Source of the DNA: a virus
DNA length: 64,000 nt
Reading direction: 5' to 3' (one strand)
IMG/VR virus record: IMGVR_UViG_3300008116_000018
The notes beneath the pieces were generated by a model. The model saw only the letters and a list, made by a program, of their open reading frames with translations, did not search any database and was not told where the DNA came from. The translations under genes were made by a program, and so were the position numbers. Positions 9,499-52,065 of this stretch are shown here, in pieces (within the stretch, counting starts at the first letter, position 1; every line of letters begins with the position of its first letter).

Positions 9499-10206
9499 TC
9501 AAGTTCCTTCTCGTATACTTTTAATTATTGGAAATACCTTTGCAATTACTTCAGCACACGCCCTTGCAATTTCTGCGTGTTCTTTTTGTGTTCCGTTACC
9601 ATCTCTCAAATCGATGTAGTGGATCCATGATCTAAGTGTGCCATTAGCATAGAGCCTCGATACTGTAAGACCCTCTGGCAAAACTGCTCTCGCTTGCTCT
9701 TTTGCAATACCATTCTTAATAGCCCATTCATATTCTTTTTTTACTGCGTACAATACTCGCTTCTGGGCACGTTCCCATTCATATGCTAATAGTTTTTGCT
9801 TTTCATCGGACATATCAAGTTCTACAGAATTCTGACGATTCTTTGTGTCTTGCATTCTCGCTTCACGTAAAACAAATGCGTCATCAAGTTCGGCTGTAGG
9901 ATCAGCATAACGTTGACTGAATTCTTGAAACGAAAAACTTCTATGTCTCAATAACTGTCTTGCAATGTCTCTTGTTGTTTCTACTTCAATACATGCTGAC
10001 ACCATTTCAAGCGGCGACCAATGCTTATGCTTAATGAGATACTTGATAAGTTTCTCAGACGTTTCGCTGTTGGCTTGATTTGATGGGTTTGATACTCTTG
10101 CACAGTATGCTACAAGGTCTTGTAGATTTGGTAAATCGAATTCAAATTCATCTTGTTTGTTTGCCTCAATCGCTTGTTGTGAATAACTTATTAATTTTAT
10201 GTTCAT
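9499..10206 (-). CDS. thyX: Flavin-dependent thymidylate synthase
   Basis: RHRSFSFQEFSQRY ThyX signature; ATG at 10206 overlaps the primase stop. Confidence 0.95.
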   Translation of the reverse strand: MNIKLISYSQQAIEANKQDEFEFDLPNLQDLVAYCARVSNPSNQANSETSEKLIKYLIKHKHWSPLEMVSACIEVETTRDIARQLLRHRSFSFQEFSQRYADPTAELDDAFVLREARMQDTKNRQNSVELDMSDEKQKLLAYEWERAQKRVLYAVKKEYEWAIKNGIAKEQARAVLPEGLTVSRLYANGTLRSWIHYIDLRDGNGTQKEHAEIARACAEVIAKVFPIIKSIREGT

Positions 10207-11225
10207 CTCATCTTCCATATGTTGTATTCAAGTAGTGCTTTAGGACCACGAAAAGTAAATTTATTTATAGTATTCAAGATTTCATCCTGCGCTTTTCCGG
10301 CGAGTATCATATCATTTATATCTTTTTCTTCATACGTTTTGGGCCATATCACTACATTTGCATCTGTACTAATTGCATCACCAATCTCTCTCACGATTTC
10401 TTTATTGCGAGGTTCGTTGTCGTAAATCAATACTAACTTATCTTTCGGTAAGTGATTGAGTACATACTTCAGATTGGAGTTGCCAACTGCGACTGCATTG
10501 GGTAAGAATAGACTATCGATTGGTCCCTCAGTAACAAAAATAGTCTGTGTTATATCTATTCCGTTCATGTTGTAAATCATGGGCGAATCATCTTTTATTT
10601 TCATCACAAGATAACGTTGTTTCTCACCACGAATACCTCTGGCAGTCAAGCCAACTAATTCATCATCTCTATCATAGAACGGCAATACGATTCTAGGTTC
10701 TTCAGTCACAATCTTCTCTTCATACTCTGGAGAAAAGACTTTCAACTTCTGAACATTATCAACGTAGTATAGCGTCTTTAATTTGTCTTCAGGAATCTTT
10801 CGTGAACGTGCATATACAATCGCTTCATGCGTATCGTTGAGTTTAGATAGAGGAGTTAGAACACCTTTTAGATTGTCTGTTTTGTTACTGCCGAATACGA
10901 CAGGCTTAAAAATGAATCCGTGTTCTTTGTGCGCTTTGCGACCAGTTTCACCTTCTTTGTATCGCTCTAAGCAATACTCTTTGTAAAGGTTAGCATCAAC
11001 TGCTTTGATTAGACTGCCTAGCGAAATGCTGACTGCACAATTGTGGCACTTGTAGAAGAGTCCACCTTTTTGTGCAAAGATGTATCCACGTGCCTTGTTT
11101 CGATTTGTTTGGGAGTCACCGCAGATAGGGCATCTGAAGTTATAGGTGTAGTCGCCTTTGCGAACAAATTTGTCCAAGCGAACCGAGAGTGTACCAATGT
11201 ACTTTTGGTCAATCCAAATACTCAT
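10203..11225 (-). CDS. g61: DNA primase (T4 gp61-like)
   Basis: CPICGDS...CHNC zinc finger and TOPRIM motifs EGPIDS, YDNE, KDIND. Confidence 0.93.
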   Translation of the reverse strand: MSIWIDQKYIGTLSVRLDKFVRKGDYTYNFRCPICGDSQTNRNKARGYIFAQKGGLFYKCHNCAVSISLGSLIKAVDANLYKEYCLERYKEGETGRKAHKEHGFIFKPVVFGSNKTDNLKGVLTPLSKLNDTHEAIVYARSRKIPEDKLKTLYYVDNVQKLKVFSPEYEEKIVTEEPRIVLPFYDRDDELVGLTARGIRGEKQRYLVMKIKDDSPMIYNMNGIDITQTIFVTEGPIDSLFLPNAVAVGNSNLKYVLNHLPKDKLVLIYDNEPRNKEIVREIGDAISTDANVVIWPKTYEEKDINDMILAGKAQDEILNTINKFTFRGPKALLEYNIWKMR

Positions 11226-38357: not shown

Positions 38358-38631
38358 TTTGTTTTCCTTCATTCAAGTCATGTACGTGTAACATGATTAT
38401 AGCATAGTGTAAAATTTTTAGCAAGTCTTTACGATTCCGTCCATCCTTCTTGCCATACCTTTGTGCATATTTCAGCACATTCCCAATACAGAATCCTTCA
38501 CCGTGGCCACCATCGATGATGAATTCTGTTGCTTGAAATTTATCACGGGAATAATGTTGCCCGTATGTTGCATCAATATAAGACTTCAGTTCTTCCAAAG
38601 TCTTATCTTCATTATATCGATAGTCTATCAT
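38344..38631 (-). CDS. DUF3310-like protein
   Basis: HY...GFCIGNVLKYAQRYGKKDG...DLLKILHY. Confidence 0.75.
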   Translation of the reverse strand: MIDYRYNEDKTLEELKSYIDATYGQHYSRDKFQATEFIIDGGHGEGFCIGNVLKYAQRYGKKDGRNRKDLLKILHYAIIMLHVHDLNEGKQNEIK

Positions 38632-39488
38632 TTCAAATTTTCAGCCACAGTTCGTTGCATAACATCATTACCAGCAGTAGGTGACGCATTAATTGCCGCA
38701 AGTGCTTGTAAAGAACCACCAAAGATATAACTGCCAGCATGTTTCAAACGCATCCATGGAAGCAACCACACCTTACCACCAGCTTTACGCATCCACTGAC
38801 AGAACATATAATCTTCTGAGAGATAACGTTTTGTATCTGGACAAATAACGCAATCAAAGTAAGCCATGATTTCTCTGCTACCATCAAAGTTTGCAGTACG
38901 CAAATGATCTGGTTTATAGCTTTGCATTGGGAATGCTTTGTCATATTTTTGAAGTGCTTCACGGGTAATCAACATGAAACCTGTGCCGCTTTCTTTCACT
39001 TCAACTGGCTCATCGATTCGAAACTCAGTTACGCCATCTGCTGGATTGAAAACATAGTCACCAACAAACTCTTCCAATTGATTTGGATTCTTGTCTGCAT
39101 ATCCTTTGTCAACTGCGATTTTAATCTTCTCCCAAGAAATTGCTTTCTTTGGATATGGACCACAAACAACATCCATGTCATCACGGCTTGACGCAAAGTG
39201 CATCATCACTAAAACGTCTTGTGGCTCAAAGTGAATATCGCTATCAATAAAAATCATATGGTCATAACCACTACGAACAAACTCATCTGTCAAATAATTT
39301 CTAGCACGTTGCACTAGTGATTCGTTAAAGATGAAAAACAGTTTAGCCTCGATACCATATTTGGTACAGAGGATCATAAGGTCTGTAATTGCTTTAGTGT
39401 ATGCTCCGTGGCATTGTCCACCATACATTGGTGTTGCGACAAAAAGTTTCTTGGTTCTTAGTTTTTGGATATCAAGTTCAAATTGCAT
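38628..39488 (-). CDS. GT-A-fold glycosyltransferase-like protein
   Basis: LFVATPMYGG, ESLVQRARN, FIDSDI (DxD), GTGFMLI and LSEDYMFC. Confidence 0.7.
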   Translation of the reverse strand: MQFELDIQKLRTKKLFVATPMYGGQCHGAYTKAITDLMILCTKYGIEAKLFFIFNESLVQRARNYLTDEFVRSGYDHMIFIDSDIHFEPQDVLVMMHFASSRDDMDVVCGPYPKKAISWEKIKIAVDKGYADKNPNQLEEFVGDYVFNPADGVTEFRIDEPVEVKESGTGFMLITREALQKYDKAFPMQSYKPDHLRTANFDGSREIMAYFDCVICPDTKRYLSEDYMFCQWMRKAGGKVWLLPWMRLKHAGSYIFGGSLQALAAINASPTAGNDVMQRTVAENLK

Positions 39489-39579: not shown

Positions 39580-40767
39580 TTAGAACGGTACTTCATCAAC
39601 TGCTGGCGCAGGAGTCACTTCCGCAGTAGGGTCGATGCCAGCATCAATCTTGGTATACAAATCAAGGAATGATGTTTTGGTTTCTGCATCAAAGCGGTTG
39701 ATACAGTACTTGATTGCTTCCATCTTATCATTGAAGATAGTGTATGCTTCGGCAATGTGAGACAAACGGCGAGTGGAAATCAATTCATCGATAGCGCCTT
39801 CTTCGAAAGTCTTACGGATGATATCAGCCCACTTCACAAGATTTTCTGCAAATGCTTTGTCATCGATACCGAGACTGGTAAACAACTTAGTCAAAATCTT
39901 TGTTTCAACTTTAGTGTCAGGATATTCCTGTTCAACCGTAATTGGAAAACGCTCAAGGAACGCATCATCAAGAATCGTAGCGGCCATGTAGCGACCAGAC
40001 TCATCACCTTTACCTTTAGTATTGGCAGTAGCGATAACGTTGAAACCCGTAACTGGTTCAACAAATTCACCAGTCTTCTTAACGAACAAACCTTTGCCTT
40101 CAAGTACACCTTGCAAGCACATTAGTTTATTTGAACCACGATCAATTTCATCAAGAATCAAAACGGCACCAGACTTCATTGCTTGAACAACTGGACCATC
40201 AAACCACTTTGTCTCTCCGTCAATCAAACGGAAGCCACCAATCAAATCGTCTTCATCAGTCTCAGGTGAAATATTCACACGGAGACATTCCGTTTTCAAT
40301 TGGGCACAGGCTTGTTCGACCATGAAAGTCTTGCCGTTACCAGAGAGACCAGAAACGAATACTGGATAAAATTTCTTTGATGCAACAATGCGTTTCATGT
40401 TGTCAAAGAATCCAAAAGGAACATACAATGAATTCACTTTAGGAATAATTGCACCTTCTTGCATACGTGCAACGGAGGACATTTTTGCTACTGCCTTTGC
40501 AACAGGAGCCATGATAGGTTGTGTAATTGGCATAGCAGAAACTGGATCGGATTTGACTAGTGCAAGACCAGCCATGTTAACATTAAATTCTTGGAGGGGC
40601 AATTCGTATTTGCCACGACCACAACGGTACTGGTCGGCTTCGAGCCAGAAGTGGCGCTTGCTACCAAGTTCTTCAGAAAGTGTCACCAATTGCTGGCGGG
40701 TCACAACGGCACCGAAACGTTTAGCGGCTTCGGTAACGAATGTAGCCTTTTCACTTTGCGTAATCAT
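39580..40767 (-). CDS. CobS/MoxR-like AAA+ ATPase
   Basis: GLSGNGKT, LDEID, TANTKGKG and AFLERF. Confidence 0.9.
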   Translation of the reverse strand: MITQSEKATFVTEAAKRFGAVVTRQQLVTLSEELGSKRHFWLEADQYRCGRGKYELPLQEFNVNMAGLALVKSDPVSAMPITQPIMAPVAKAVAKMSSVARMQEGAIIPKVNSLYVPFGFFDNMKRIVASKKFYPVFVSGLSGNGKTFMVEQACAQLKTECLRVNISPETDEDDLIGGFRLIDGETKWFDGPVVQAMKSGAVLILDEIDRGSNKLMCLQGVLEGKGLFVKKTGEFVEPVTGFNVIATANTKGKGDESGRYMAATILDDAFLERFPITVEQEYPDTKVETKILTKLFTSLGIDDKAFAENLVKWADIIRKTFEEGAIDELISTRRLSHIAEAYTIFNDKMEAIKYCINRFDAETKTSFLDLYTKIDAGIDPTAEVTPAPAVDEVPF

Positions 40768-40809
40768 AATATAATTGCCTTTCAGTTAAAAATCAATTTC
40801 AATACTAGT

Positions 40810-40838
40810 AGTATAACAGAGTATTTATGGTAAGTCAA
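40810..40838 (-). promoter_or_regulatory. Sigma70-type (early) promoter
   Basis: TTGACT-N17-TATACT. Confidence 0.75.
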
Positions 40839-40869
40839 GGGATGTTTTGATTGTTGTTTTTATACAACA

Positions 40870-43062
40870 TCAAGCAATTTCCTTGATTACCTTAGAGAGA
40901 AGAACACGGTTTGTCAAACGGTTTTGGTTCATTTTCATAAATGCGCCTTTCAACTTACGTGCGGAAACATCTTTAGCTTCACCAAGAATGTCACTTAGCG
41001 AATCATCATCGGTAGACAAATCTTCACCACCAGGGATCAGGAAGTACTCAGAGTATCCATATCCATTGACAGAGAAAAACTTTTCATTACGAAATTGTTT
41101 GTATCCATCATCAGTCATTATCATATTGAAACGTGACATTGCATTTTGGAAGTAACGTCTGCTTTTTGGCAAGATATAGAATCCAATCAAATTGCAACCA
41201 GTACGATCCTTTAGAATTTGCAATAACGTTGGCGTTACACCTTTGTCACTCACACGATAATTCTTTGCGGAATCTTTGTCTTCAATATAAGATACTGAAC
41301 GATAGTCAGACGGTCCGATACGGGTTGAACGATTATCACCAGATGAAGTCCACATTGTACTGCTGTCTTCTCCGTCTGTTAAAAAGATAACATTCACAAT
41401 TTCAGACCGAGTACGTTTACGAAAATCATTCACTACATTAGATGCGACTTGAATTGTTGCATTCAATGGAGTACCACCAAGACCCATACCTTCTTTGATA
41501 TAACTTGATTTGTAATTTCTACGATAACTTGTGTAAGGCTTGTATGCATCGGCAACGTTCAACAAATCATTTGCAAATTTGCGATACGTTTGATTTTTCA
41601 TACTGCTAGACAAAATATTCATCAAAGAAAAATAGTCAATGTCTAATTGATTAGGTTCCATATCAATAGATTGATTTGGTCTGTCTATCAAATTCTTTCT
41701 ATACTCAGTACTGAATGCATAAACATCAAAAGGAATATTCACTTTGCGGCAGAAGGTTGTCATTGTAATCAACTGTTCGATTGTGCCAGACATATTGTCT
41801 ACCATAGAACCAGACCAGTCAATGAACATCACAATGCCGTGATTCTTACCTTGTGCAACTGCACCGATCTTGCGGAAGATATCATCATTGAATTTGTAAG
41901 TGTGCAATTTGTTGGTGTCAAGTGTACCAGTATCGGAGACTGTTACACGGCGCAACTCGGCCGCTTTCTTTTTCATTTCGAATTCTTTTACAAGATAAGC
42001 AATTGGATTCTTATTCTTGGCTTCAAATTTCATTAGCAAAGTAGAATCATAACGCTCATGCGCTTCCAATTCTTCATTATCAAAGAATGATTCATCAAAG
42101 AATTTCAACTCTTTAAAAGGAATAATATAATTCTTTAAATCGATTTTCTTTTGACTAGCAATCTTACCAACATTAATTTCTTTTGTTTCTGCAAGACCTT
42201 TTAATGCTTGCTGAAATTTTTCATCCGTTACAGATTTAACTTCATCACCATACACCTTTAATTCGTTAGGCATTGCCTGTTCGAATGTTGGCGTATTAGA
42301 ATAGCCATTGTCGAATTGATCTTCAGATTCGAAATCTTCATCACCGTCATCGGAGCCATTGGAATCATAATCATTTGGATTTTTGTCTTCATAGTCTTCA
42401 GTATCATCACCACCGAAAATATCATCACCAAAATCTTCATCATCGAATTCGCCATTCTCTTTGCGCTTTTCGAATTCTTCTTTAGCCTCTTGACGTTTTT
42501 GGTCTAACTCTGCTTTGCAAAATGCATACAAACGTTCGGTGATATCTTTCACTTGTTCAAACGAATCTGCTTTTTCAACTTCGTTGACGTATGACATTTC
42601 TTCGGCATTGAATTTGATACCTGCAATAGCACCAAGTTTAAAATGCAAATTGATTCTATCAATCAACATCATTGCATTTACATCTTGACCTTTGATGCCA
42701 AAGAAATCACGTTCAGTAAATTGACGATAAGCAATAGCCATTGGTTTACGCAAACCAGGATATCTGTCTTTCATTCTACGTTCGACCCTTGCATCTTCAA
42801 CCACATTCAGGAATGTAGAAAATGCAGAACCGCCAGCCTTTGCAGACTCAACGTATGATTGTGGTGTGTCTAATGCGTGACCCACTTCATGCCCGACCAA
42901 AAGGTCTGTCATTTCAGGTGTGGTGTCATTCATAATGGGAAGAGTAAGACGGCGATTAACGATATCGAATGATGCAGTTTGCACCTTGCGATACTCTACC
43001 GAAATATTCTCTGTAGCAAGTAACTTTGCTAGAGTGGATTTTGAAATTTGTGTATTAAGCAT
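40870..43062 (-). CDS. CobT-like VWA protein with N-terminal HExxH peptidase domain
   Basis: HEVGH, NVVED, acidic linker, MIDAS DWSGS, TPL and LTDG. Confidence 0.85.
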   Translation of the reverse strand: MLNTQISKSTLAKLLATENISVEYRKVQTASFDIVNRRLTLPIMNDTTPEMTDLLVGHEVGHALDTPQSYVESAKAGGSAFSTFLNVVEDARVERRMKDRYPGLRKPMAIAYRQFTERDFFGIKGQDVNAMMLIDRINLHFKLGAIAGIKFNAEEMSYVNEVEKADSFEQVKDITERLYAFCKAELDQKRQEAKEEFEKRKENGEFDDEDFGDDIFGGDDTEDYEDKNPNDYDSNGSDDGDEDFESEDQFDNGYSNTPTFEQAMPNELKVYGDEVKSVTDEKFQQALKGLAETKEINVGKIASQKKIDLKNYIIPFKELKFFDESFFDNEELEAHERYDSTLLMKFEAKNKNPIAYLVKEFEMKKKAAELRRVTVSDTGTLDTNKLHTYKFNDDIFRKIGAVAQGKNHGIVMFIDWSGSMVDNMSGTIEQLITMTTFCRKVNIPFDVYAFSTEYRKNLIDRPNQSIDMEPNQLDIDYFSLMNILSSSMKNQTYRKFANDLLNVADAYKPYTSYRRNYKSSYIKEGMGLGGTPLNATIQVASNVVNDFRKRTRSEIVNVIFLTDGEDSSTMWTSSGDNRSTRIGPSDYRSVSYIEDKDSAKNYRVSDKGVTPTLLQILKDRTGCNLIGFYILPKSRRYFQNAMSRFNMIMTDDGYKQFRNEKFFSVNGYGYSEYFLIPGGEDLSTDDDSLSDILGEAKDVSARKLKGAFMKMNQNRLTNRVLLSKVIKEIA

Positions 43063-43853: not shown

Positions 43854-45428
43854 TTACGGCTTGTAAAAAACAAAAATCGGTTCATACTTCAACCACATCC
43901 CGTTTACTTTGCAGAAATTCTTTGCTTTTGGCAAACCAGTGTCAGGGTCGATACGATTGCCGCCTGGCATTTGTGCTAGTGCCATCTTAACCACACCTTT
44001 GAATTGCATACCGAGTGATTCCAAAATGTCTTTGCTATCTTTTTCAAGTGGCAACATGTCAGCACCAAACTTAGCATCAGCAATATTCCAAAGTAAGTAT
44101 CTGTCATTACGCAAATACTCAACAGCAGTCTCTAGCGTTGGACGCAAGAAACCTTCACGCCATGCATCATAGCCAGTAAACTTTTTATATGATTGCGTTG
44201 GGTCTTCACTATACGCTTCCTTAGCAAAGTAAGGAGGGCTAGTGAACACCATATCTAATTCGCCCTTGTACTTTTGGAACGAACTATCATCTCGGACAAC
44301 TTCAGAACCAAGTTGAAAAACTTCGTAAGTGTTTGACTGTTCGAACAAAACTCCTTCGTTCTTTGCGGAGTTATAGAACTCAGCCAAGTCGGCATATTTA
44401 GTACTAGGACTGCCGCTATCGCTAACAATGCTGTGATCGGTATTAGGATCAGTACCCACATAGTGTAAAGGAAGAGAAGTGCGAGAAGCCATAGCACCCA
44501 AAATACGCCCACCCCAACCAGAAGAGGGATCGTAAACAACAATTCTGTCTTGGTTCTTAACGTGTCTAGTAAATTTTTCATAAAGAAGTTTTGCAGTCAA
44601 AGGTGGGAAGTTAACAGCATATTGGCACCACGATACACGAAATGCTTTCAAGCCAACAGGAAAAATCTTTTGTCCGTACTTGTACATACGCAGACGATAC
44701 TTCTTCTGGTCATGCGACTTTATGTTCATTGTAGACTTAGATGGAATTGTCTCTAGAATTTCTTGCGTCACTTCAAGATACTTTACGCCCTTGAGTTGTT
44801 CATTGTAACCACTATACTCTTCATCATCATCACGACTCTCTACCCAATAGTCATAACCATACTGACGAATGTTGTTCTCTTCAAACCAACGAACAAAATC
44901 ATCGCCATTCTTAAACTTCACATTATAAGAACCAACGTTGATAATCTCATTGACTTTAACAGTATTTGAATATGCATAGAACGAATCACGTTTGAAGTGT
45001 CGCTTAGAATACTTCAAAGTCTTCTCAAGCAATTCATCTTTCAGAAAGTGGTCATAGATTGAAAGCCCATCGTCATTCTTAGTGTAGTTGATACGTGTCT
45101 TCATCATGGTTGGAAACCATTGATTAGCGGCATTGCCAACTACGCTAGTGTTTCGAATTACATCTTTCTCACCAGTTAATTCGTCAACGTGTTCAAACTC
45201 ATGCACAGAGAATCCATACATCTCTTTGAATTGTTTTTTGATTGCATCTTCACTCCAACCAACTCTTGGTGGTTGACCCATAGTGTCCCATGAGTGTACA
45301 ACTGCTTTACGCAAATCAATAAACCATTGACGAAATTCGTCTTCAGTCATCCATTGCACTTCTTCAAATGTCTTGTTTGTTTCGTGGTTCAATAACCAAT
45401 CGTTACGTTCATAAAAATGTTTTGTCAT
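43854..45428 (-). CDS. Amino (N6A/N4C) methyltransferase-like protein
   Basis: Motif I YDPSSGWGGR and motif IV FTSPPYF; long unique N-terminal region; ATG at 45428 overlaps the deaminase stop. Confidence 0.8.
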   Translation of the reverse strand: MTKHFYERNDWLLNHETNKTFEEVQWMTEDEFRQWFIDLRKAVVHSWDTMGQPPRVGWSEDAIKKQFKEMYGFSVHEFEHVDELTGEKDVIRNTSVVGNAANQWFPTMMKTRINYTKNDDGLSIYDHFLKDELLEKTLKYSKRHFKRDSFYAYSNTVKVNEIINVGSYNVKFKNGDDFVRWFEENNIRQYGYDYWVESRDDDEEYSGYNEQLKGVKYLEVTQEILETIPSKSTMNIKSHDQKKYRLRMYKYGQKIFPVGLKAFRVSWCQYAVNFPPLTAKLLYEKFTRHVKNQDRIVVYDPSSGWGGRILGAMASRTSLPLHYVGTDPNTDHSIVSDSGSPSTKYADLAEFYNSAKNEGVLFEQSNTYEVFQLGSEVVRDDSSFQKYKGELDMVFTSPPYFAKEAYSEDPTQSYKKFTGYDAWREGFLRPTLETAVEYLRNDRYLLWNIADAKFGADMLPLEKDSKDILESLGMQFKGVVKMALAQMPGGNRIDPDTGLPKAKNFCKVNGMWLKYEPIFVFYKP

Positions 45429-45880
45429 GTTATCTGTTTTACTGTTATTCCACATTTATTTAGGAAATTGATTCCTGCATCATCACGATAATCTTCGGCA
45501 TAGAAGACTTCTTTAATACCTGTTTGAAATATCATTTTAGCACAGTCCATGCATGGAGCGCAAGTGATAAACATACTTGCACCATCACCACTCTCGGTAG
45601 ACTTAGCAAGTTTGGCAATTGCATTAGACTCGGCATGGAGAACTTCGGGTTTTGTTTTTAATTGTTTAATCTCTCTTTGTGGCACTCCGTCAACTACTGC
45701 AACCACTACTTCTTCTTCACAATTGTTATCCCATCCACTTGGCATACCATTGTAACCGATTGAAATGATTCTGTCATCTTTAACGACAACAGCACCAACT
45801 TGTTTGCGTCTAGCAGTACTCAATTCGGCAAAGACTCTTGCAGTCTTCATGTATGCGCCAAGATATTTTTCTTTAATCAT
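45425..45880 (-). CDS. cd: dCMP deaminase
   Basis: GYNG, HAESNAI and PCMDC zinc motifs. Confidence 0.92.
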   Translation of the reverse strand: MIKEKYLGAYMKTARVFAELSTARRKQVGAVVVKDDRIISIGYNGMPSGWDNNCEEEVVVAVVDGVPQREIKQLKTKPEVLHAESNAIAKLAKSTESGDGASMFITCAPCMDCAKMIFQTGIKEVFYAEDYRDDAGINFLNKCGITVKQIT

Positions 45881-46124
45881 TATCAAATTTTTCTGTCTGT
45901 TCAAAACGTCTTTCTTGAATCGTTTTTTCTTTCCATACTTTTCTAGGATTTGCACACATCACGCAATTTGGATTCCCACAATCTAAGACATGATGTTTAG
46001 CTAATTGATGCGGAGACTCAACTGGTATATTATACGCTTTTGCAATTTTCAATTGCTTTCGTATTGCGTTTTCGTCTTCAAGGATTCGTTTAGATTTTTT
46101 AAATTTATCTTCTTCGTTACTCAT
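45873..46124 (-). CDS. Small Cys-containing hypothetical protein
   Basis: CGNPNCVMCANPR; AAGGAG SD. Confidence 0.7.
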   Translation of the reverse strand: MSNEEDKFKKSKRILEDENAIRKQLKIAKAYNIPVESPHQLAKHHVLDCGNPNCVMCANPRKVWKEKTIQERRFEQTEKFDND

Positions 46125-46146
46125 GTTCGACTCCTTTGAATATTAA

Positions 46147-46911
46147 TTAAGCTACATTCCAGATTAGTGCGCCTGGTTTCCCACTACTCACTACAAACTG
46201 CCAAAGTTTAGCATCGTAGTATTTCTCAGATGGATATGGAGGTGCTTGACTCTCTTCCACTACTTGGTCATACTTGTAAGGTGAACGCATAGTGATAGCA
46301 CGACCTTTTTCATAATCACTCATCTTGTGTCCAATCTCTACTGCATATGCAGGCACATCAGGAAATGCTAATTGCAGTCCACGATTTAACGTTCCGCTTG
46401 ATGCAACAGTCCAAATCTCTGTTGGCTTGATATTTAAATCTCTAGCAACTTTAACAATCGATGCAAGCACAGATGGATGTTCTAACCCCAAAGGCAAACA
46501 TTGTCTGCGCTTTGTATCTTCTTCTTGATAACGTCTTGCTCTTGCTTTTGTCACAGTAAGCATACCATTGTCAACCCAATGAATAGTGCCGCCAAGGTCC
46601 AATACTCTTTGCTGATGCCATGTAGGCTCTTTGCGTTTAGCCATAAAGAACGTTGCTTTTTTTCCATAGAGATTACATACATAGGTTAATGATATAGGAC
46701 CCCAACCAACTTTGTTTGCACCACCAAAGACCCATTCGTCACATTCGGTAGTCTTCACAAGATGGTCGATGAATCGACTCTTACTTCCATACTCTAATAA
46801 GTCATCACGCACAACATGAAAGCCATGGTGCATCTCGACTATCGGTGCAGGGTTTGGGTCTTTCCAATCTTTAATTATATCAGAAACTTCTTCAGGATAC
46901 AAGCGACTCAT
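46147..46911 (-). CDS. Fold-type II PLP-dependent enzyme
   Basis: VRDDLL..GSKSR (Schiff-base Lys), ASSGTL phosphate loop, YDAKLW and IWNVA. Confidence 0.78.
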   Translation of the reverse strand: MSRLYPEEVSDIIKDWKDPNPAPIVEMHHGFHVVRDDLLEYGSKSRFIDHLVKTTECDEWVFGGANKVGWGPISLTYVCNLYGKKATFFMAKRKEPTWHQQRVLDLGGTIHWVDNGMLTVTKARARRYQEEDTKRRQCLPLGLEHPSVLASIVKVARDLNIKPTEIWTVASSGTLNRGLQLAFPDVPAYAVEIGHKMSDYEKGRAITMRSPYKYDQVVEESQAPPYPSEKYYDAKLWQFVVSSGKPGALIWNVA

Positions 46912-47992
46912 ACAGTTCTCCTTCAGAAATTGCGTCTATGACTAAGTGAATTCTATTATCTGTTCCATTGTTGATTGCTTGATGTGGCTTACGTGTATCT
47001 AAGAACCACAAGTCTCCAACGTCCATATGTATCTTCTGTGGAGTACCTTTAGTGTCCCACACAGTAAAAATCATGTTTGGATTAGTAATGATTGGTATGT
47101 GTAGTCTTGCAAGTTTGCCTTTAGAACCACCAGAGTCTTTATCAACTTGATCGGTATGTCTTTCAAGTTCTCCACCGCCAGGTTTCAATTGCATGAAACG
47201 AACACGATGCACTTCTTTGTATTTACTTAACAACTCACGCACCTCAGGAAACATATCGTAGAGTGGTGTGTCTTGCAATTCAAATTTCACATCTTTGTTT
47301 TTTTCTTTCCAGTCATCACTCATCTCTGAAGGCTTTGTGATGAAGTCTGATTCTGGACGATAACCACGTAGTGACAATGCAGACCATGCTTTATCTTTGT
47401 TGTAGTTACTATAATGATTTGTGAATGCAGGTAATGTTGCTAACTTAGCAGAAACAGATTGAATAAACTCTGGCATGATTGCACCAATCTTTTTGATACT
47501 CAAATATTCTGTTGATTCTACTTTAGGAAACGAACGTGGAAAAGGACTATTGCTCTTAAAGTAAATTGCATGTACTTCTCCGTATGTTGTGATCTTAGGA
47601 CCAACATAACAGAAACCTAACTCTTCAGCTAAGTCGCAATGTGCTTTGTTCTCTGCCCATACAGTTAGCCAAAAATCTCTACCCGACAATACAGAAATTT
47701 GTTGTTTGATAGTATTGATGTTGCCCGAAAGTTTTCCAATCGAAACATCACCCTTTACTTTTGTTGCAATAACTGTGTCGCCATGCATCGTAATGTCTGA
47801 TGCAACTTTGTTTACTGTTACGTCAATCATTGCATCACCAAGCAAAACAAGAGTTCCTTTTTTCAAAGACTCTGCAATATTGTTCTTCTTATACTTTGCA
47901 AAAGGCGATAACGTATATGCATTGTAGTCTGCATACTGCGTTTCAAGTCCCTTGAGATAATCTATGTCATACCCATGTTGCCAAGGTTTCAT
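46892..47992 (-). CDS. GNAT-like N-domain fused to Asp/Asn beta-hydroxylase-like 2OG-Fe(II) domain
   Basis: C-domain RVRFMQLKPGG..HTD, RLHIPI, H and RIHLVID; N-domain WLTVWAEN...AEELGF. Confidence 0.7.
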   Translation of the reverse strand: MKPWQHGYDIDYLKGLETQYADYNAYTLSPFAKYKKNNIAESLKKGTLVLLGDAMIDVTVNKVASDITMHGDTVIATKVKGDVSIGKLSGNINTIKQQISVLSGRDFWLTVWAENKAHCDLAEELGFCYVGPKITTYGEVHAIYFKSNSPFPRSFPKVESTEYLSIKKIGAIMPEFIQSVSAKLATLPAFTNHYSNYNKDKAWSALSLRGYRPESDFITKPSEMSDDWKEKNKDVKFELQDTPLYDMFPEVRELLSKYKEVHRVRFMQLKPGGGELERHTDQVDKDSGGSKGKLARLHIPIITNPNMIFTVWDTKGTPQKIHMDVGDLWFLDTRKPHQAINNGTDNRIHLVIDAISEGELYESLVS

Positions 47993-48492
47993 TTTTTTAC
48001 CTTACGTTTTAGAATCATACGTTTACGCATTGCACGTTGTGCTTCAAATGCTGAAGCCTTTTGAGTATACACTTTTCCAAGCATATGGTCAAACTCATGC
48101 AATGCAATTCTGGCAGTCATGCCAATAAACCTTTCAGTTCTTGTTTCACCATTTTCATCTTGAAAACGAATACGTATCGAATCTGGACGTTTAACATTCA
48201 AGTACAACAAAGGAAAACTTAAGCAACCTTCTTTCATTGTAAGTTCTTTATCTGATACATCAACAACTCTTGGATTGAACACTGCGTATGGTTCATTAGC
48301 CGTTCTCATAACAAAAACACGATATGGGTGTCCGACTTGATTTGCTGACAAGCCAAGCCCATCACTCTTCACCATCTTGTCGTGTAGTGCTTGTGCAAAC
48401 TCTTTTGGGTCGAATGGTGGATTTGAGAAATCAAACTCTTTGCATTCTTGCAAAAGAATGGGTGATGTTTCTGAAACAAATTCAAGGTTCAT
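47989..48492 (-). CDS. def: Peptide deformylase
   Basis: GLGLSANQ, EGCLS and HEFDH. Confidence 0.93.
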   Translation of the reverse strand: MNLEFVSETSPILLQECKEFDFSNPPFDPKEFAQALHDKMVKSDGLGLSANQVGHPYRVFVMRTANEPYAVFNPRVVDVSDKELTMKEGCLSFPLLYLNVKRPDSIRIRFQDENGETRTERFIGMTARIALHEFDHMLGKVYTQKASAFEAQRAMRKRMILKRKVKK

Positions 48493-48670
48493 GGGATTCT
48501 CCTAATACATAATTTTCTGCGAAATTTTCAGCTTCATCTATATTATTAAAGAATGCTACAAAGTATGAGCCAAATTCATTTCGCATTCTAACTTTATAGA
48601 ATCCTTCATCGTAATGAACGTGCGCTTCTCTATCGATATCTGTTCCATAATGTTCACTGAGTATTTTCAT
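48482..48670 (-). CDS. Small hypothetical protein
   Basis: Start MKILSEHY with AAGGA SD. Confidence 0.65.
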   Translation of the reverse strand: MKILSEHYGTDIDREAHVHYDEGFYKVRMRNEFGSYFVAFFNNIDEAENFAENYVLGESHEP

Positions 48671-49286
48671 TTTTATGTTCCTTTCCAGTATTAAATGATA
48701 TTGAAATTCTGTCTTCATTTATATTTGAATTTCTATCAACTGAGTGTTCCATCCATGATGGAAATATAATTATCATATTTTCTTTACAAGGAAACATTGC
48801 ACCACTACTAAACCAAGGATAGTAACTCACTTCATTCTCTTTAAAATTCCAAAAATGCAAATAAGAGTCCATCAAAGGTGCCATTGGATTTTCAAATCTA
48901 ATATTTCCACAATTTTCAGGAGTTTTAACGTAAAAAGTTCCCGATAAAATTGATCCAGTATGACGATGTGAATTATTATAATTTCCATATTGATTTATGT
49001 TAATCCACAAATTACCAATATCCAATTTAGGAACAATACCAATATTAGAAGAAACTTTGTTTATTCCAACACGAATTTCATTGAGAAGTTTTTTGAATTC
49101 TATATTTTTAATCGACTCTATATCAACATTACCACTCTGCCAACCTCCACAATTACTTTTTTCATTTTTAACGGTCGTGTTGTTTTTTAAATCATAACAA
49201 AAATCTGCAATTTGATTAACATCAAGCGTTAAATCTTCGACAGAAAATGGTTGAGGAAATACTGCTTCTACATTATATAAGTTCAT
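48654..49286 (-). CDS. 2OG-Fe(II) oxygenase (TIGR02466-like)
   Basis: GGWQS, WININ..HRH, SGTFY, FPSWMEHSV and RISISFN. Confidence 0.85.
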   Translation of the reverse strand: MNLYNVEAVFPQPFSVEDLTLDVNQIADFCYDLKNNTTVKNEKSNCGGWQSGNVDIESIKNIEFKKLLNEIRVGINKVSSNIGIVPKLDIGNLWININQYGNYNNSHRHTGSILSGTFYVKTPENCGNIRFENPMAPLMDSYLHFWNFKENEVSYYPWFSSGAMFPCKENMIIIFPSWMEHSVDRNSNINEDRISISFNTGKEHKNENTQ

Positions 49287-50995
49287 TTTGCAATCCTTGA
49301 AAAATTATTTACCTTCTCGAATCTAATCACGTTGGCAAACTTGTCTTGTAGAATATCACCTTTGTGTGATATGACAAATAGGTTAGAACCTTCAAGCATG
49401 TTTAGAATCTTCATCAAATCTTCTGTACCATTTGTGTCTAATGATGAATCAAAGATTTCATCAAGTATTAATATGTTTGTGCTGGCGCTGTTCTTCAGTT
49501 TGGCAACTGCTCTCCATGTCAACATCAATGCCATATCGATGCGTTGTTTCTCACCTTCACTGAATGATGCATATGTGAAATCATCACGATGGCGAGACTT
49601 GATTGTTTCTTTGAATGATTCATCCAAATTGAAGTTCACAAAGAAATCTAATGATGCAAGATACTTGTTAACTAGCTTGTTGATGACTGGTATGTATTGA
49701 CGAATGATTTTCGTTTTGATGCCTGTGTCTTTCAATAAGTTCGTTGCAATCTCAAAATACAAACGCTCTTCAGCAATAACTTTAATTTCAGATTCTAGTT
49801 CTGCTAGTTCTGTAGTCAACGTTGCAAGTTTCTCTTGTTCTGCATTAACATCATCCTTAACGGAATTCAATCGCACAATCTCTTTATTAATATTGTCAAT
49901 GTGTCTTTGATTTACTCTGACCTCACTCTGTTCAAATGTCAACTGAGAATTCAATGTTTGAATTTGTTCAGCAATCGTTTCAATCTCAACAAGTCTACCA
50001 TTGACAAGATCAAGTTCAGTTTTAACTTTTGACAATGCATCATCGACTTCAACTAATTTTTTGTTTCGTTCTTCTACAATGTGTGTCTTATATTCATTAC
50101 CAATAGCTTGTTTGCATGTTGGGCAATCATCATTGTTATGATAAAACTCAATGTCAGTATCAATTTTTTTATGAGTCTTTATTAAATTCTGACGAATCGT
50201 TGTAAATTTAGATAGCTTTGCATCGACTTTAGACTTGTCTGAAATTTGTGTACATATTTCTGACAAAGTTGTTTGTAGTGCTATGCATCTAGTTTCACTC
50301 TCTGCAATCAACAATTGTGTGTTAGCAATGTCTTGTTGCTTAGATAAAATCTGAGTTGCGTTGTTCTTATTCAATGAATCGATAAACTGAATTTGATATT
50401 GAATCTTTTCACTCTTCAGATCAACAGCATACTTCGACTGCGAATGTTTTTCTTTCAACAAAAGAAACTTATCTTTGAGAACACTATTCATGCGTGAGAA
50501 GATTTGAATATCTAACAAGTCTTCAATGATAGAACGTCTATCGCTTGCAGACAATTGCATGAATGGAGTAAACGATGCTGAACCCAACAAAACAATTTGA
50601 GTAAAAGATTTGTAGTTGAGTTTGAGGATGAATTTCTCTAGGTGTTCTTGATAGTCTTTGACTGCGGCATCTTGATTGACTAGATGCCCATTGCAGTAAA
50701 TTTCAAACACATTTGGTTTGATACCACGAACGATTTTGTATGACTTATTGCCTGTGTCGAATTCAATTTCAACAGTACAATCTTTTTGATTGATCGTATT
50801 GACAAGTTGTCCTTTGTTGATATTACGAAATGGTTTGCCAAACAGCACAAAGCACAATGCGTCAAGCATAGTAGACTTACCCGAACCATTAGAGCCAACA
50901 ATCAACGTGGTGTTGTTGCCATCTAAGTTCAGTTCAGTAAAGAAGTTACCAGTTGATAGAAAGTTCTTCCATCTCAAATTACGAAAAATAATCAT
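49283..50995 (-). CDS. g46: Recombination nuclease ATPase subunit gp46 (Rad50/SbcC-like)
   Basis: GSNGSGKS, zinc hook CPTC, FSEGE and LDEIFD. Confidence 0.95.
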   Translation of the reverse strand: MIIFRNLRWKNFLSTGNFFTELNLDGNNTTLIVGSNGSGKSTMLDALCFVLFGKPFRNINKGQLVNTINQKDCTVEIEFDTGNKSYKIVRGIKPNVFEIYCNGHLVNQDAAVKDYQEHLEKFILKLNYKSFTQIVLLGSASFTPFMQLSASDRRSIIEDLLDIQIFSRMNSVLKDKFLLLKEKHSQSKYAVDLKSEKIQYQIQFIDSLNKNNATQILSKQQDIANTQLLIAESETRCIALQTTLSEICTQISDKSKVDAKLSKFTTIRQNLIKTHKKIDTDIEFYHNNDDCPTCKQAIGNEYKTHIVEERNKKLVEVDDALSKVKTELDLVNGRLVEIETIAEQIQTLNSQLTFEQSEVRVNQRHIDNINKEIVRLNSVKDDVNAEQEKLATLTTELAELESEIKVIAEERLYFEIATNLLKDTGIKTKIIRQYIPVINKLVNKYLASLDFFVNFNLDESFKETIKSRHRDDFTYASFSEGEKQRIDMALMLTWRAVAKLKNSASTNILILDEIFDSSLDTNGTEDLMKILNMLEGSNLFVISHKGDILQDKFANVIRFEKVNNFSRIAK

Positions 50996-52065
50996 TCTAT
51001 ATTTTCTTTGGATAGTGCCTCAACGTAAAGTTCACGCATCAATGTTTTAAGTTTATTAGTGTCTGAAATATTTAGGCTTTGCGTATCGATAAATGAAGAA
51101 AGAATTGTCATGGTGTCTTGCGCTTGGTCAATAATATCACTATCAGTTTCTTCATTCGATATAGTAAAGTCTTCAACAATCGTAACGTCTACAGGACCAA
51201 ATTTATAAATTTCATCTATCAACTTTTCAAATAGATAAGGATCCTGTTTATTCAAAACAACAACTTTCACATAAGCATTTGCATACTTAGAAAAGTTTAT
51301 GTCTTTCAAGTCTTCAATCTTTAATTGATTGTCATCATAATTTACCTTATAAAACATTCGGTGAGGATTCTCTACGAATGTAGTCTGCATTGTTTCAGTG
51401 TCTAAAATACCAAACTGTTTTTTGTCTTTGTAATCATTCCAAAACAATTCATAGGGCGCACCAACATACGTGATGTTGTCGTGCTGTGATGGTGTATGAT
51501 AGTGTCCGCTGTATACATGATTATAGTTGCTTAGAAACTTATAGTCAAGTCCTTCATGGCTATCTACACCACGGAACAATGGAAAGCCAGCAAGTTCAAA
51601 GTGCCCCATGCACAATGAAGAAGATGTGTTCTTCACAAACTCAAAAACTTCCGCTTCATTGCTTTTGCAAATCCATGGTATCATATCGATTTTGATCCCA
51701 TCAACTTCAAGTGTACCAGGTTTCTGCCATAGCACAATGTTATGATAGTCTCTCAGCAACAAGTCAGGAGAATTAACTTCAAGACTTTCTTTCCAAAAGA
51801 TATCGTGATTACCAATCAATGCGTGAAGAGTAATGCCTTCTTCAACGCATCTGTCAAAGAAGTATCTACGACTTTCCATCAGCGAATGAAAGTTGATGTA
51901 CTTGCGTCTATCGAACAAGTCACCAAGCTGAATGATTGTTCTTACACCACGATGTTTCAGTTCTGGAAAGAATGTCTCATCATAAAATTTTTCATAGTAA
52001 GCATGAAACGCTTTGGAGTCATTTCTAACACCAAAGTGAGTATCACCTAGTAAACATATTCTCAT
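50992..52065 (-). CDS. g47: Recombination nuclease subunit gp47 (Mre11/SbcD-like)
   Basis: GDTHFG, GDLFD, GNHD and SGHYH. Confidence 0.95.
   Translation of the reverse strand: MRICLLGDTHFGVRNDSKAFHAYYEKFYDETFFPELKHRGVRTIIQLGDLFDRRKYINFHSLMESRRYFFDRCVEEGITLHALIGNHDIFWKESLEVNSPDLLLRDYHNIVLWQKPGTLEVDGIKIDMIPWICKSNEAEVFEFVKNTSSSLCMGHFELAGFPLFRGVDSHEGLDYKFLSNYNHVYSGHYHTPSQHDNITYVGAPYELFWNDYKDKKQFGILDTETMQTTFVENPHRMFYKVNYDDNQLKIEDLKDINFSKYANAYVKVVVLNKQDPYLFEKLIDEIYKFGPVDVTIVEDFTISNEETDSDIIDQAQDTMTILSSFIDTQSLNISDTNKLKTLMRELYVEALSKENIE

Follow-up and report, generated by a model that had tools for sequence, protein, structure and literature searches.

We asked whether a run of enzyme genes lying next to the genes gp47 and gp46 of an uncultured T4-like phage encodes a pathway for an undescribed DNA base, and, if so, which of the genes belong to it. 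The window analysed was a 64,000-nucleotide stretch of the virus record IMGVR_UViG_3300008116_000018. The original prediction placed a 2OG-Fe(II) oxygenase, a GNAT-like/Asp-beta-hydroxylase fusion, a fold-II PLP enzyme, a dCMP deaminase and a large SPPY amino-methyltransferase-like protein directly after these genes, and proposed that together they install a methyl or aminocarboxypropyl group on A or C and then tailor it. The genes were found where they had been placed, all on the minus strand, and the observation was confirmed. The interpretation was only partly supported, since the stretch proved to be a mixed gene island between gp46 and gp45, in which three genes form a linked module.

Beyond gp47 (50992-52065) and gp46 (49283-50995), the first gene (48654-49286) encodes a 2OG-Fe(II) oxygenase (2OG-FeII_Oxy_5, PF13759 at 1.8e-20, TIGR02466, phrog_81). 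A peptide deformylase gene (47989-48492; PF01327 at 2.7e-36, phrog_2890 at 1.2e-40), overlooked by the original prediction, lies between this oxygenase and the GNAT-like/AspH-type fusion gene (46892-47992). The PLP enzyme gene (46147-46911) overlaps the fusion gene by 20 nt and has its own GAAGGAG ribosome-binding site. Two small ORFs, at 48482-48718 and 45873-46124, had also been missed; the latter encodes an 83-aa protein (phrog_4499) and travels with the module in the closer relatives. The dCMP deaminase gene (45425-45955; PF00383 at 1.4e-21, phrog_174 at 4e-50) is followed by the methyltransferase-like ORF (43854-45455), whose homologues start at Met10 (45428), a start that gives an ATGA stop/start overlap with the deaminase gene. 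The resulting 524-aa protein (43854-45428) is here called MT533, and the 254-aa PLP enzyme PLP254. The window also encodes ThyX (9499-10218; PF02511 at 1.2e-41).

We first examined whether all five enzymes could form one pathway, either as originally proposed or as a cryptic thymidine route in which the extra oxygenase makes hmU. The genes are adjacent on one strand without clear terminators between them, and the deaminase gene and MT533 are coupled by the ATGA overlap. However, in nearly all of about 190 related loci the 2OG oxygenase has no orthologue at this place, with only 23-36% identical hits in a few; the deaminase gene lies kilobases away or is missing in many relatives; the deformylase interrupts the set; and no Tet_JBP, ThyA-type hydroxymethylase or amino-acid:DNA transferase is present in complete relatives. 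A five-enzyme pathway is therefore very unlikely. The 2OG oxygenase next to gp46, an accessory gene specific to this phage's island, and the deformylase, an auxiliary metabolic gene, are not part of the module, and the deaminase, coupled only locally, is ordinary nucleotide metabolism and not a conserved module member.

MT533 comprises an N-terminal domain of unassigned fold (44706-45428) and a class-I methyltransferase domain (43857-44618). Motif I, DPSSGWGGR (309-317), and motif IV, TSPPY (405-409), are invariant in 41 homologues. Family matches were weak for PF01555 (19.2 bits against a cut-off of 26.7, although several homologues pass), 8.5e-10 for phrog_12517 and 2.8e-6 for phrog_498. Motif I comes before motif IV, so that only part of the Pfam model matches. 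The AF2 model (pLDDT 85) has a class-I methyltransferase fold matching known structures at Z 12-15. No ParB domain was detected in MT533. The conserved 240-aa N-domain falls in 194 representative clusters and lies N-terminal to the methyltransferase domain in every hit checked. We found 2278 homologues of MT533, all named only "hypothetical protein", and across the clade the protein is as conserved as core replication genes (60-98% identity).

The best structural matches of the catalytic domain, aTrm11 (Z 14.9), TrmN (14.4) and Trm14 (13.9), raise the possibility that the module modifies host or phage tRNA or rRNA, with MT533 acting like an m2G tRNA methyltransferase and the other two enzymes tailoring the RNA base. 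Aminocarboxypropyl transfer has so far been described only on RNA (Tyw2, Tsr3, TapT). These Z-scores are, however, not separated from those of generic methyltransferases at 12-13, the sequence-level relatives are phage DNA methylase families and ParB fusions, and the partners of the other two enzymes elsewhere (Tet_JBP, amino-acid:DNA transferase and M6 gp52) are DNA-specific. We consider the RNA reading very unlikely.

The fusion protein matches Asp_Arg_Hydrox (PF05118) at 4e-12 over residues 185-354 (46.7 bits against a cut-off of 22.6). In the AF2 model (pLDDT 92), residues 157-362 (oxygenase domain, about 46907-47524) have an AspH-type fold, with matches at Z 14-15 and L-proline cis-4-hydroxylase nearest (Z 14.8, 24% identity). 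H279, D281, H337, H349 and R347 are invariant, in keeping with the HxD...H iron triad and basic residue for 2OG of this class. The GNAT fold of residues 9-150 (about 47543-47968) is evident only in the predicted structure (Z 12.3 to 2pc1, rmsd 3.4, 137 aligned, with more than ten further GNATs at Z 9.8-11.4). On inspection, neither the sequence nor the conserved columns showed a clear Q/RxxGxG/A CoA motif, and only a motif-B-like WAENxxHxxLAExxGF segment was visible. The family has 839 full-length homologues.

PLP254, a small and putatively fold-type-II-like PLP enzyme, falls in phrog_7093 (8.4e-29), as does M6 gp52. An hhalign comparison of the PLP254 family with M6 gp52 gave a full-length alignment (probability 97.6%, E 2.8e-12, 217 columns) in which K44 aligned with the PLP lysine of gp52, and hmmsearch gave 9e-14. 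Gp52 is a PLP-dependent decarboxylase acting on DNA-borne amino acids (Lee et al. 2021, PMC8989533). K44 (within GSKxR) and S172-G173 are invariant in the PLP254 family. The window's own protein scores only 17.4 bits against the PALP cut-off of 35, whereas 16 of 32 family members match PF00291 at E < 0.01.

Co-occurrence of the three enzymes across phages had been set beforehand as a test. Within the T4-like clade, 46 of 47 distinct AspH genes have MT533 downstream, 42 of 46 MT533 genes have AspH upstream, and 31 of 46 have PLP254 upstream; in 52 of 54 distinct PLP254 copies the AspH gene ends within 200 nt upstream. Most of this co-occurrence could be inherited synteny, and the linkage is not absolute. 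MT533 occurs without the other two genes in about 4 of 46 sampled loci, two near-complete genomes have MT533 and the fusion but no PLP254, indicating that the PLP step is dispensable and PLP254 an optional member, and one 56-kb fragment has the fusion and PLP254 but no MT533.

The same three functions also recur with non-orthologous parts in two other phage contigs, in other orders and with other methylase forms. A 64% GC phage-like contig with DnaB, replication and terminase genes, binned with an Anaerolineaceae MAG, encodes a ParB-methylase (phrog_12517 at 5e-100, with CPPY), a PLP254-like gene (6e-41) and a GNAT/AspH-like gene (5.5e-66); apart from one 55-residue, 38% match to a 77-aa ORF, nothing else on it credibly matches the window. 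A 32% GC phage contig (L201) carries GNAT/AspH, PALP and a small N6_N4 methylase gene in that order, all overlapping. Gene fusions were also found: an in-frame AspH-PLP254 fusion (P0190), an MT533-like protein fused to PALP (P0438), whose PALP is 47% identical to that of L201, and gp1 of Erythrobacter phage R6L (vB_EliS_R6L), in which a PLP254-like domain is inserted between methylase motifs I and IV.

Homologues of the fusion (profile matches at 4e-44 and similar) lie directly after ParB_N, Tet_JBP and amino-acid:DNA transferase (ADDT; PF18724, 44-48 bits) in five actinobacterial (pro)phage loci, namely Mycobacterium phage LilMcDreamy and four further loci (L204, L206, L207 and L208). The ParB-dependent T-dioxygenase subclass has been linked to known thymidine-hypermodification machinery such as kinases, GATases and AADTs (PMC13229309), the gene set seen here. 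In the 64% GC contig and in the cultured phages R6L and Mae-JY30, the methylase partner carries or adjoins a ParB domain.

In the thymidine pathways of phages M6, ViI and PaMx11, 5-hmdU, the 5-HMUDK kinase and amino-acid:DNA transferase precede a PLP decarboxylase, radical-SAM isomerase, FAD lyase or GNAT acetyltransferase (PMC8989533). PLP254 corresponds to the M6 gp52/ViI gp226-type tailoring enzyme, and a GNAT domain is present as in PaMx11 gp48; the logic would be the same, to append an amino-acid-like group to a base in DNA and then tailor it. By contrast, three complete or near-complete relatives (150 kb with terminal repeats, 163 kb and 143 kb) gave no match to ThyA-type synthase (PF00303; 10 control genomes matched), to Tet_JBP (PF12851; LilMcDreamy matched weakly) or to ADDT (PF18724; LilMcDreamy matched at 47 bits and M6-like PC1 at 161 bits). 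Tblastn of the LilMcDreamy Tet_JBP-like protein against the window, and of its ADDT (gp3) against the window and the loci collected up to that stage, gave nothing. A search for the kinase helical domain (PF18723) gave no match, but no control genome matched either. R6L and Mae-JY30 pair the methylase with the PLP enzyme and likewise lack ADDT. In place of these enzymes stands an xPPY amino-methyltransferase-fold protein, so that the target is probably the exocyclic amine of A or C rather than C5 of thymine. An AspH-type 2OG oxygenase fused to a GNAT domain was not found as a tailoring enzyme in the papers searched.

We therefore consider it somewhat more likely than not, on comparative genomics alone, that the three genes make a post-replicative hypermodification of phage DNA on an exocyclic amino group of adenine or cytosine. 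In this view, MT533 would flip out the base and use SAM to install the starting group. We favour transfer of the 3-amino-3-carboxypropyl part of SAM, since only that would give the free alpha-amino acid on which M6 gp52-type decarboxylases act, with a plain methyl group as the alternative. PLP254 would then decarboxylate the appended amino acid to an aminopropyl chain, the fusion would hydroxylate and N-acylate it, and the product would protect the DNA from host nucleases. The analysis establishes the folds, motifs, homologies, gene fusions and recurrent co-occurrence, whereas DNA as the substrate in this phage, the target base, the group transferred (methyl or aminocarboxypropyl) and the order of steps are inferred. 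The parallel with Tyw2/Taw2 is one of idea only, a class-I methyltransferase fold handing over the amino-acid part of SAM; no specific sequence or structural match to Tyw2 was seen among the listed hits, and the substrate here would be DNA. Phage Mu Mom, a GNAT-fold enzyme making N6-carbamoylmethyl-adenine with iron involved (PMC7261163), offers a parallel in the use of a GNAT fold to decorate an exocyclic amine of adenine in phage DNA, although no sequence relation was seen and here the GNAT-like domain is fused to a 2OG oxygenase and partnered with a methylase and a PLP enzyme.

The main alternative is that two unrelated systems lie side by side, MT533 being an ordinary orphan m4C or m6A DNA methyltransferase used against restriction, and the fusion and PLP254 an auxiliary metabolic pair acting on a free amino acid, another small molecule or a protein. 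MT533 keeps complete SAM and xPPY motifs, which are equally compatible with plain methylation; SPPY is the classic m4C motif, distant phage homologues are annotated as DNA methylases, and MT533 stands alone in some relatives. Moreover, the nearest solved oxygenases are free proline/pipecolate hydroxylases, and the island also holds plain auxiliary genes (deformylase, 2OG oxygenase and CobS/CobT). Against this stand the homology of PLP254 to a decarboxylase of DNA-borne amino acids, the presence of the fusion family in ADDT cassettes, and the recurrence of methylase, PLP enzyme and fusion in unrelated phages with gene displacement and fusions, and we regard this alternative as unlikely.

Taken in full, the aminocarboxypropyl route to an N-aminopropyl base in double-stranded DNA that is then hydroxylated and acylated is possible but remains unlikely on present evidence; if true, it would be the first SAM-derived, polyamine-like hypermodification of A or C in DNA. 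All known phage pathways that hang amino acids on DNA start from 5-hydroxymethyl-uracil and an amino-acid:DNA transferase. Here the characteristic tailoring enzymes are joined instead, repeatedly and in unrelated phages, to an exocyclic-amine methyltransferase fold, which points to a second way of starting DNA hypermodification, probably on A or C. The idea is directly testable, because the cultured phages vB_EliS_R6L, Mae-JY30 and LilMcDreamy carry parts of the module, and methylase-plus-PLP pairs occur in cultured Erythrobacter and Microcystis phages. The more than 2000 MT533 homologues come from public metagenome protein sets and lay on contigs of T4-like phages wherever we examined them, and the family is as conserved as replication genes in a large clade of uncultured T4-like phages. 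An unknown base could therefore be common in environmental phage DNA, where it would affect restriction and CRISPR evasion, sequencing and metagenome recovery, and could yield new enzymes for DNA labelling.

The window derives from an uncultured T4-like myovirus and encodes gp46, gp47, gp45, gp44, gp55, UvsW, a major head protein, RNR and primase. Its gp46 was only 49% identical to those of cyanophages, and a nucleotide search of the region against cultured phages returned no match. All genes considered here lie on the minus strand. In transcription order, gp47 and gp46 are followed by a PF13759/TIGR02466 2OG-Fe(II) oxygenase (48654-49286), a 78-aa ORF, a peptide deformylase (47989-48492), a 366-aa protein with an AspH-type oxygenase domain (46892-47992), a 254-aa PLP-like protein overlapping it by 20 nt (46147-46911; PLP254), an 83-aa ORF, a dCMP deaminase (45425-45955), a 533-codon ORF with an SPPY motif (43854-45455; MT533), a 200-aa unknown, CobT, CobS, a 286-aa protein and gp45. 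Homologues of the SPPY protein begin at Met10, and that start creates an ATGA stop/start overlap with the deaminase gene. The gene content described in the original prediction was therefore confirmed, although the deformylase had been missed. The CobS-like ATPase and the CobT-like gene (phrog_459, “peptidase”) form a pair at 39580-43062, just downstream of the module as in cyanophages, and are absent from one sub-clade, where MT533 abuts gp45. The 286-aa protein (phrog_1574; 38628-39488), located between CobS and gp45, is conserved, gave a faint glycosyltransferase-like match (Glyco_transf_21, 20 bits, and phrog_34859), and is present in most relatives that carry MT533.

The AF2 model of MT533 (pLDDT 85) has a C-terminal class-I methyltransferase domain, in which motif I (DPSSGWGGR) and motif IV (TSPPY) are invariant. 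Structural matches were led by the tRNA m2G enzymes aTrm11 and TrmN (Z 14-15), only slightly above generic methyltransferases, whereas at sequence level the protein matched phrog_12517, phrog_498 and, weakly, PF01555. Its 240-aa N-domain has no assignable family; it occurs in 194 representative clusters and, in every hit that we checked, lies N-terminal to this methyltransferase domain. An ESM Atlas feature search returned no named or confident look-alike of the N-domain, and searches with the whole model gave no fold assignment; we do not claim a new fold. The family has 2278 detectable members, none with a functional name. Some homologues (L124:353-2668, on one of the fetched loci, and the proteins P0378, P0380, P0381 and P0389) are 725-771 aa long and carry a C-terminal extension of about 190 aa, which matched no family and showed no relation to genes of the window. 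Distant homologues P0438, P0441 and P0512 sit on contigs that look like bacterial mobile islands, two of them with integrase genes; each is preceded by an abutting or overlapping unknown gene of 333-417 aa, and the neighbours include an HNH+HIT protein, a PycTM protein or a Sel1/trypsin protein, contexts that resemble restriction-modification or defence islands.

The 366-aa fusion protein was modelled at pLDDT 92 as two domains. Residues 9-150 form a predicted GNAT fold (Z 12.3 to 2pc1, with many GNATs at 10-12), so that the “GNAT-like” assignment of the original prediction holds structurally. Residues 157-362 form a predicted AspH-type oxygenase, closest to L-proline cis-4-hydroxylase (Z 14.8, 24% identity), with invariant iron-binding residues. 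PLP254 is only weakly PALP-like by Pfam, with 16 of 32 homologues matching, but has an invariant GSKxR lysine and an SSGT loop. Sequence and profile searches of MT533 and PLP254 against PDB sequences gave nothing useful, and NCBIfam had no family for any of the three module proteins. A complex prediction of MT533 with PLP254 returned no verdict and is not used either way.

To examine whether these genes are linked, we fetched about 190 related loci from IMG/VR; of the 267 IMG/VR contigs with MT533 relatives, only the best 80 were included. MT533 (60-98% identical) always lies between gp46 and gp45. Of 47 distinct fusion genes with enough downstream sequence, 46 are followed by MT533, a count that includes seven directly abutting cases listed as exceptions in the raw count but shown on inspection to have MT533. 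Conversely, 42 of 46 MT533 genes have the fusion gene upstream and 31 of 46 have PLP254 upstream, and for 52 of 54 PLP254 genes the fusion gene ends within 200 nt upstream. The pattern is nested, with MT533 alone, MT533 with the fusion, or all three genes. Two near-complete genomes have the fusion and MT533 but no PLP254 anywhere, and one 56-kb fragment has the fusion and PLP254 but no MT533. The other genes behave differently: the 2OG oxygenase next to gp46 has no orthologue in almost all relatives, the dCMP deaminase lies kilobases away or is missing in many, and the deformylase is an unrelated auxiliary gene. The original prediction, which had placed the 2OG oxygenase, the fusion, the PLP enzyme, the deaminase and the MTase-like protein in one candidate base-hypermodification pathway, was thus only partly supported. 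Because synteny within one phage clade could simply be inherited, we looked for evidence outside it.

The fusion family was found in thymidine-hypermodification cassettes. Its only cultured-phage relative is gp4 of Mycobacterium phage LilMcDreamy (4e-44 with a profile HMM of the family, colinear and of the same length), which follows gp1 (annotated ParB-like), gp2 (L195:855-1787) and gp3 (ADDT amino-acid:DNA transferase, 47 bits). The gp2 gene is annotated as queuine tRNA-ribosyltransferase, but it gave no match to PF01702 (TGT/DpdA), a family that had returned no match in our searches, and gave a weak Tet_JBP match. Together with the ParB-like gp1 and the ADDT gp3 it looks like a ParB-dependent thymine dioxygenase cassette, so that the annotation is probably wrong. 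The same four-gene cassette occurs in two Kribbella genomes and in Microbacteriaceae and Acidimicrobiales MAG contigs. The ParB-dependent T-dioxygenase subclass has been linked to known thymidine-hypermodification machinery, namely kinases, GATases and AADTs (PMC13229309), where the AspH-type fusion is not mentioned. A profile comparison of MT533 with the LilMcDreamy amino-acid:DNA transferase showed no relation.

Two further contigs carried the three functions together. The first is a 62-kb, 64% GC phage-like contig (L203) binned with an Anaerolineaceae MAG, which encodes DnaB, a replication protein and a terminase and which, apart from one 55-residue, 38% match to a 77-aa ORF, shares nothing with the window except these genes. 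Within 4.5 kb it carries a ParB-methylase of the same PHROGs as MT533 (phrog_12517 at 5e-100; motif FSCPPY...ERYSDDP, compared with FTSPPY...EAYSEDP in MT533), a PLP254 homologue (6e-41) and a fusion homologue (5.5e-66), in a gene order different from that of the window; a DUF6527 gene (L203:6993-7505) directly follows the fusion homologue. The second is a 32% GC phage contig (L201) with the fusion gene, a PALP gene and a small canonical N6_N4 methylase, all overlapping. This methylase (L201:7984-8670) has TSLPD where motif IV (SPPY) is expected, a possible sign of altered chemistry. The L201 PALP is 47% identical to a PALP domain fused to the C-terminus of a distant MT533 homologue in a bacterial island. 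An in-frame fusion-PLP254 protein also exists.

Among cultured phages, PLP254 homologues at 34-35% identity occur under “DNA modification methylase” annotations in Erythrobacter phages vB_EliS_R6L and ZS04 and in Microcystis phage Mae-JY30. The 807-aa R6L gp1 (L213:2843-5265) comprises a ParB domain and a methyltransferase, and its gp52-like PLP domain (residues 399-622, 1.5e-58) is inserted between methylase motif I (DPFAG, 341) and motif IV (CPPY, 662). In Mae-JY30 the ParB, methylase and PLP parts are three adjacent genes.

PLP254 falls in phrog_7093 together with M6 gp52 and its PC1 orthologue. A profile comparison with M6 gp52 gave 97.6% probability and E 2.8e-12 over the full length, with the lysine aligned. 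Lee et al. 2021 showed that gp52 is the PLP-dependent decarboxylase that trims an amino acid already attached to thymidine in DNA, and that a GNAT enzyme acetylates the unmasked amine in PaMx11 (PMC8989533). We initially read all parts as independent, with a joint pathway unlikely. This reading was abandoned after the gp52 comparison, the LilMcDreamy-type cassettes, the L203 and L201 contigs and the R6L insertion.

The thymidine-modifying and amino-acid-transferring machinery that starts the M6- and PaMx11-type pathways was not found here. Searches for it used relatives in place of the whole genome of the window: three complete or near-complete relatives, one of them a 150-kb genome with terminal repeats and 97% identical MT533 (G002), lack ThyA-type enzymes, Tet_JBP and ADDT. 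The kinase search was uninformative, as was a PF00291 genome search, which missed even the known PLP254 copy. R6L and Mae-JY30 also lack ADDT, while M6-like PC1 and LilMcDreamy gave positive matches. The window encodes ThyX (9499-10218; PF02511 at 1.2e-41), whereas G002 gave no ThyX or ThyA match and two more distant relatives have ThyX, indicating that thymidylate synthase is variable in this clade.

We found no description of this module in the literature searched. Both accessory enzymes belong to families whose other associations are with amino-acid adducts on DNA, and in this phage, and in several unrelated ones, their only DNA-modifying partner is an xPPY methyltransferase-fold enzyme. 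We consider a DNA hypermodification module centred on MT533 somewhat more likely than not; the main rival explanation, an ordinary orphan methylase lying next to a small-molecule enzyme pair, is considered less likely. The homologies, motifs, predicted folds, gene fusions and recurrent co-occurrence are results of the analysis, whereas the action of the module on DNA in this phage, the group transferred and the tailoring reactions are inferred from them. A gp52-type decarboxylase needs a free alpha-amino acid, and the amino-carboxypropyl part of SAM is the obvious source, which makes the Tyw2-like transfer suggested in the original prediction attractive as a hypothesis. Overall, however, acp transfer remains doubtful on present evidence, and plain methylation followed by other chemistry is not excluded. 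The simplest model is that the methyltransferase-fold enzyme installs the group that the others would tailor. The nested gene pattern fits such stepwise elaboration, and it also shows that MT533 has a function of its own.
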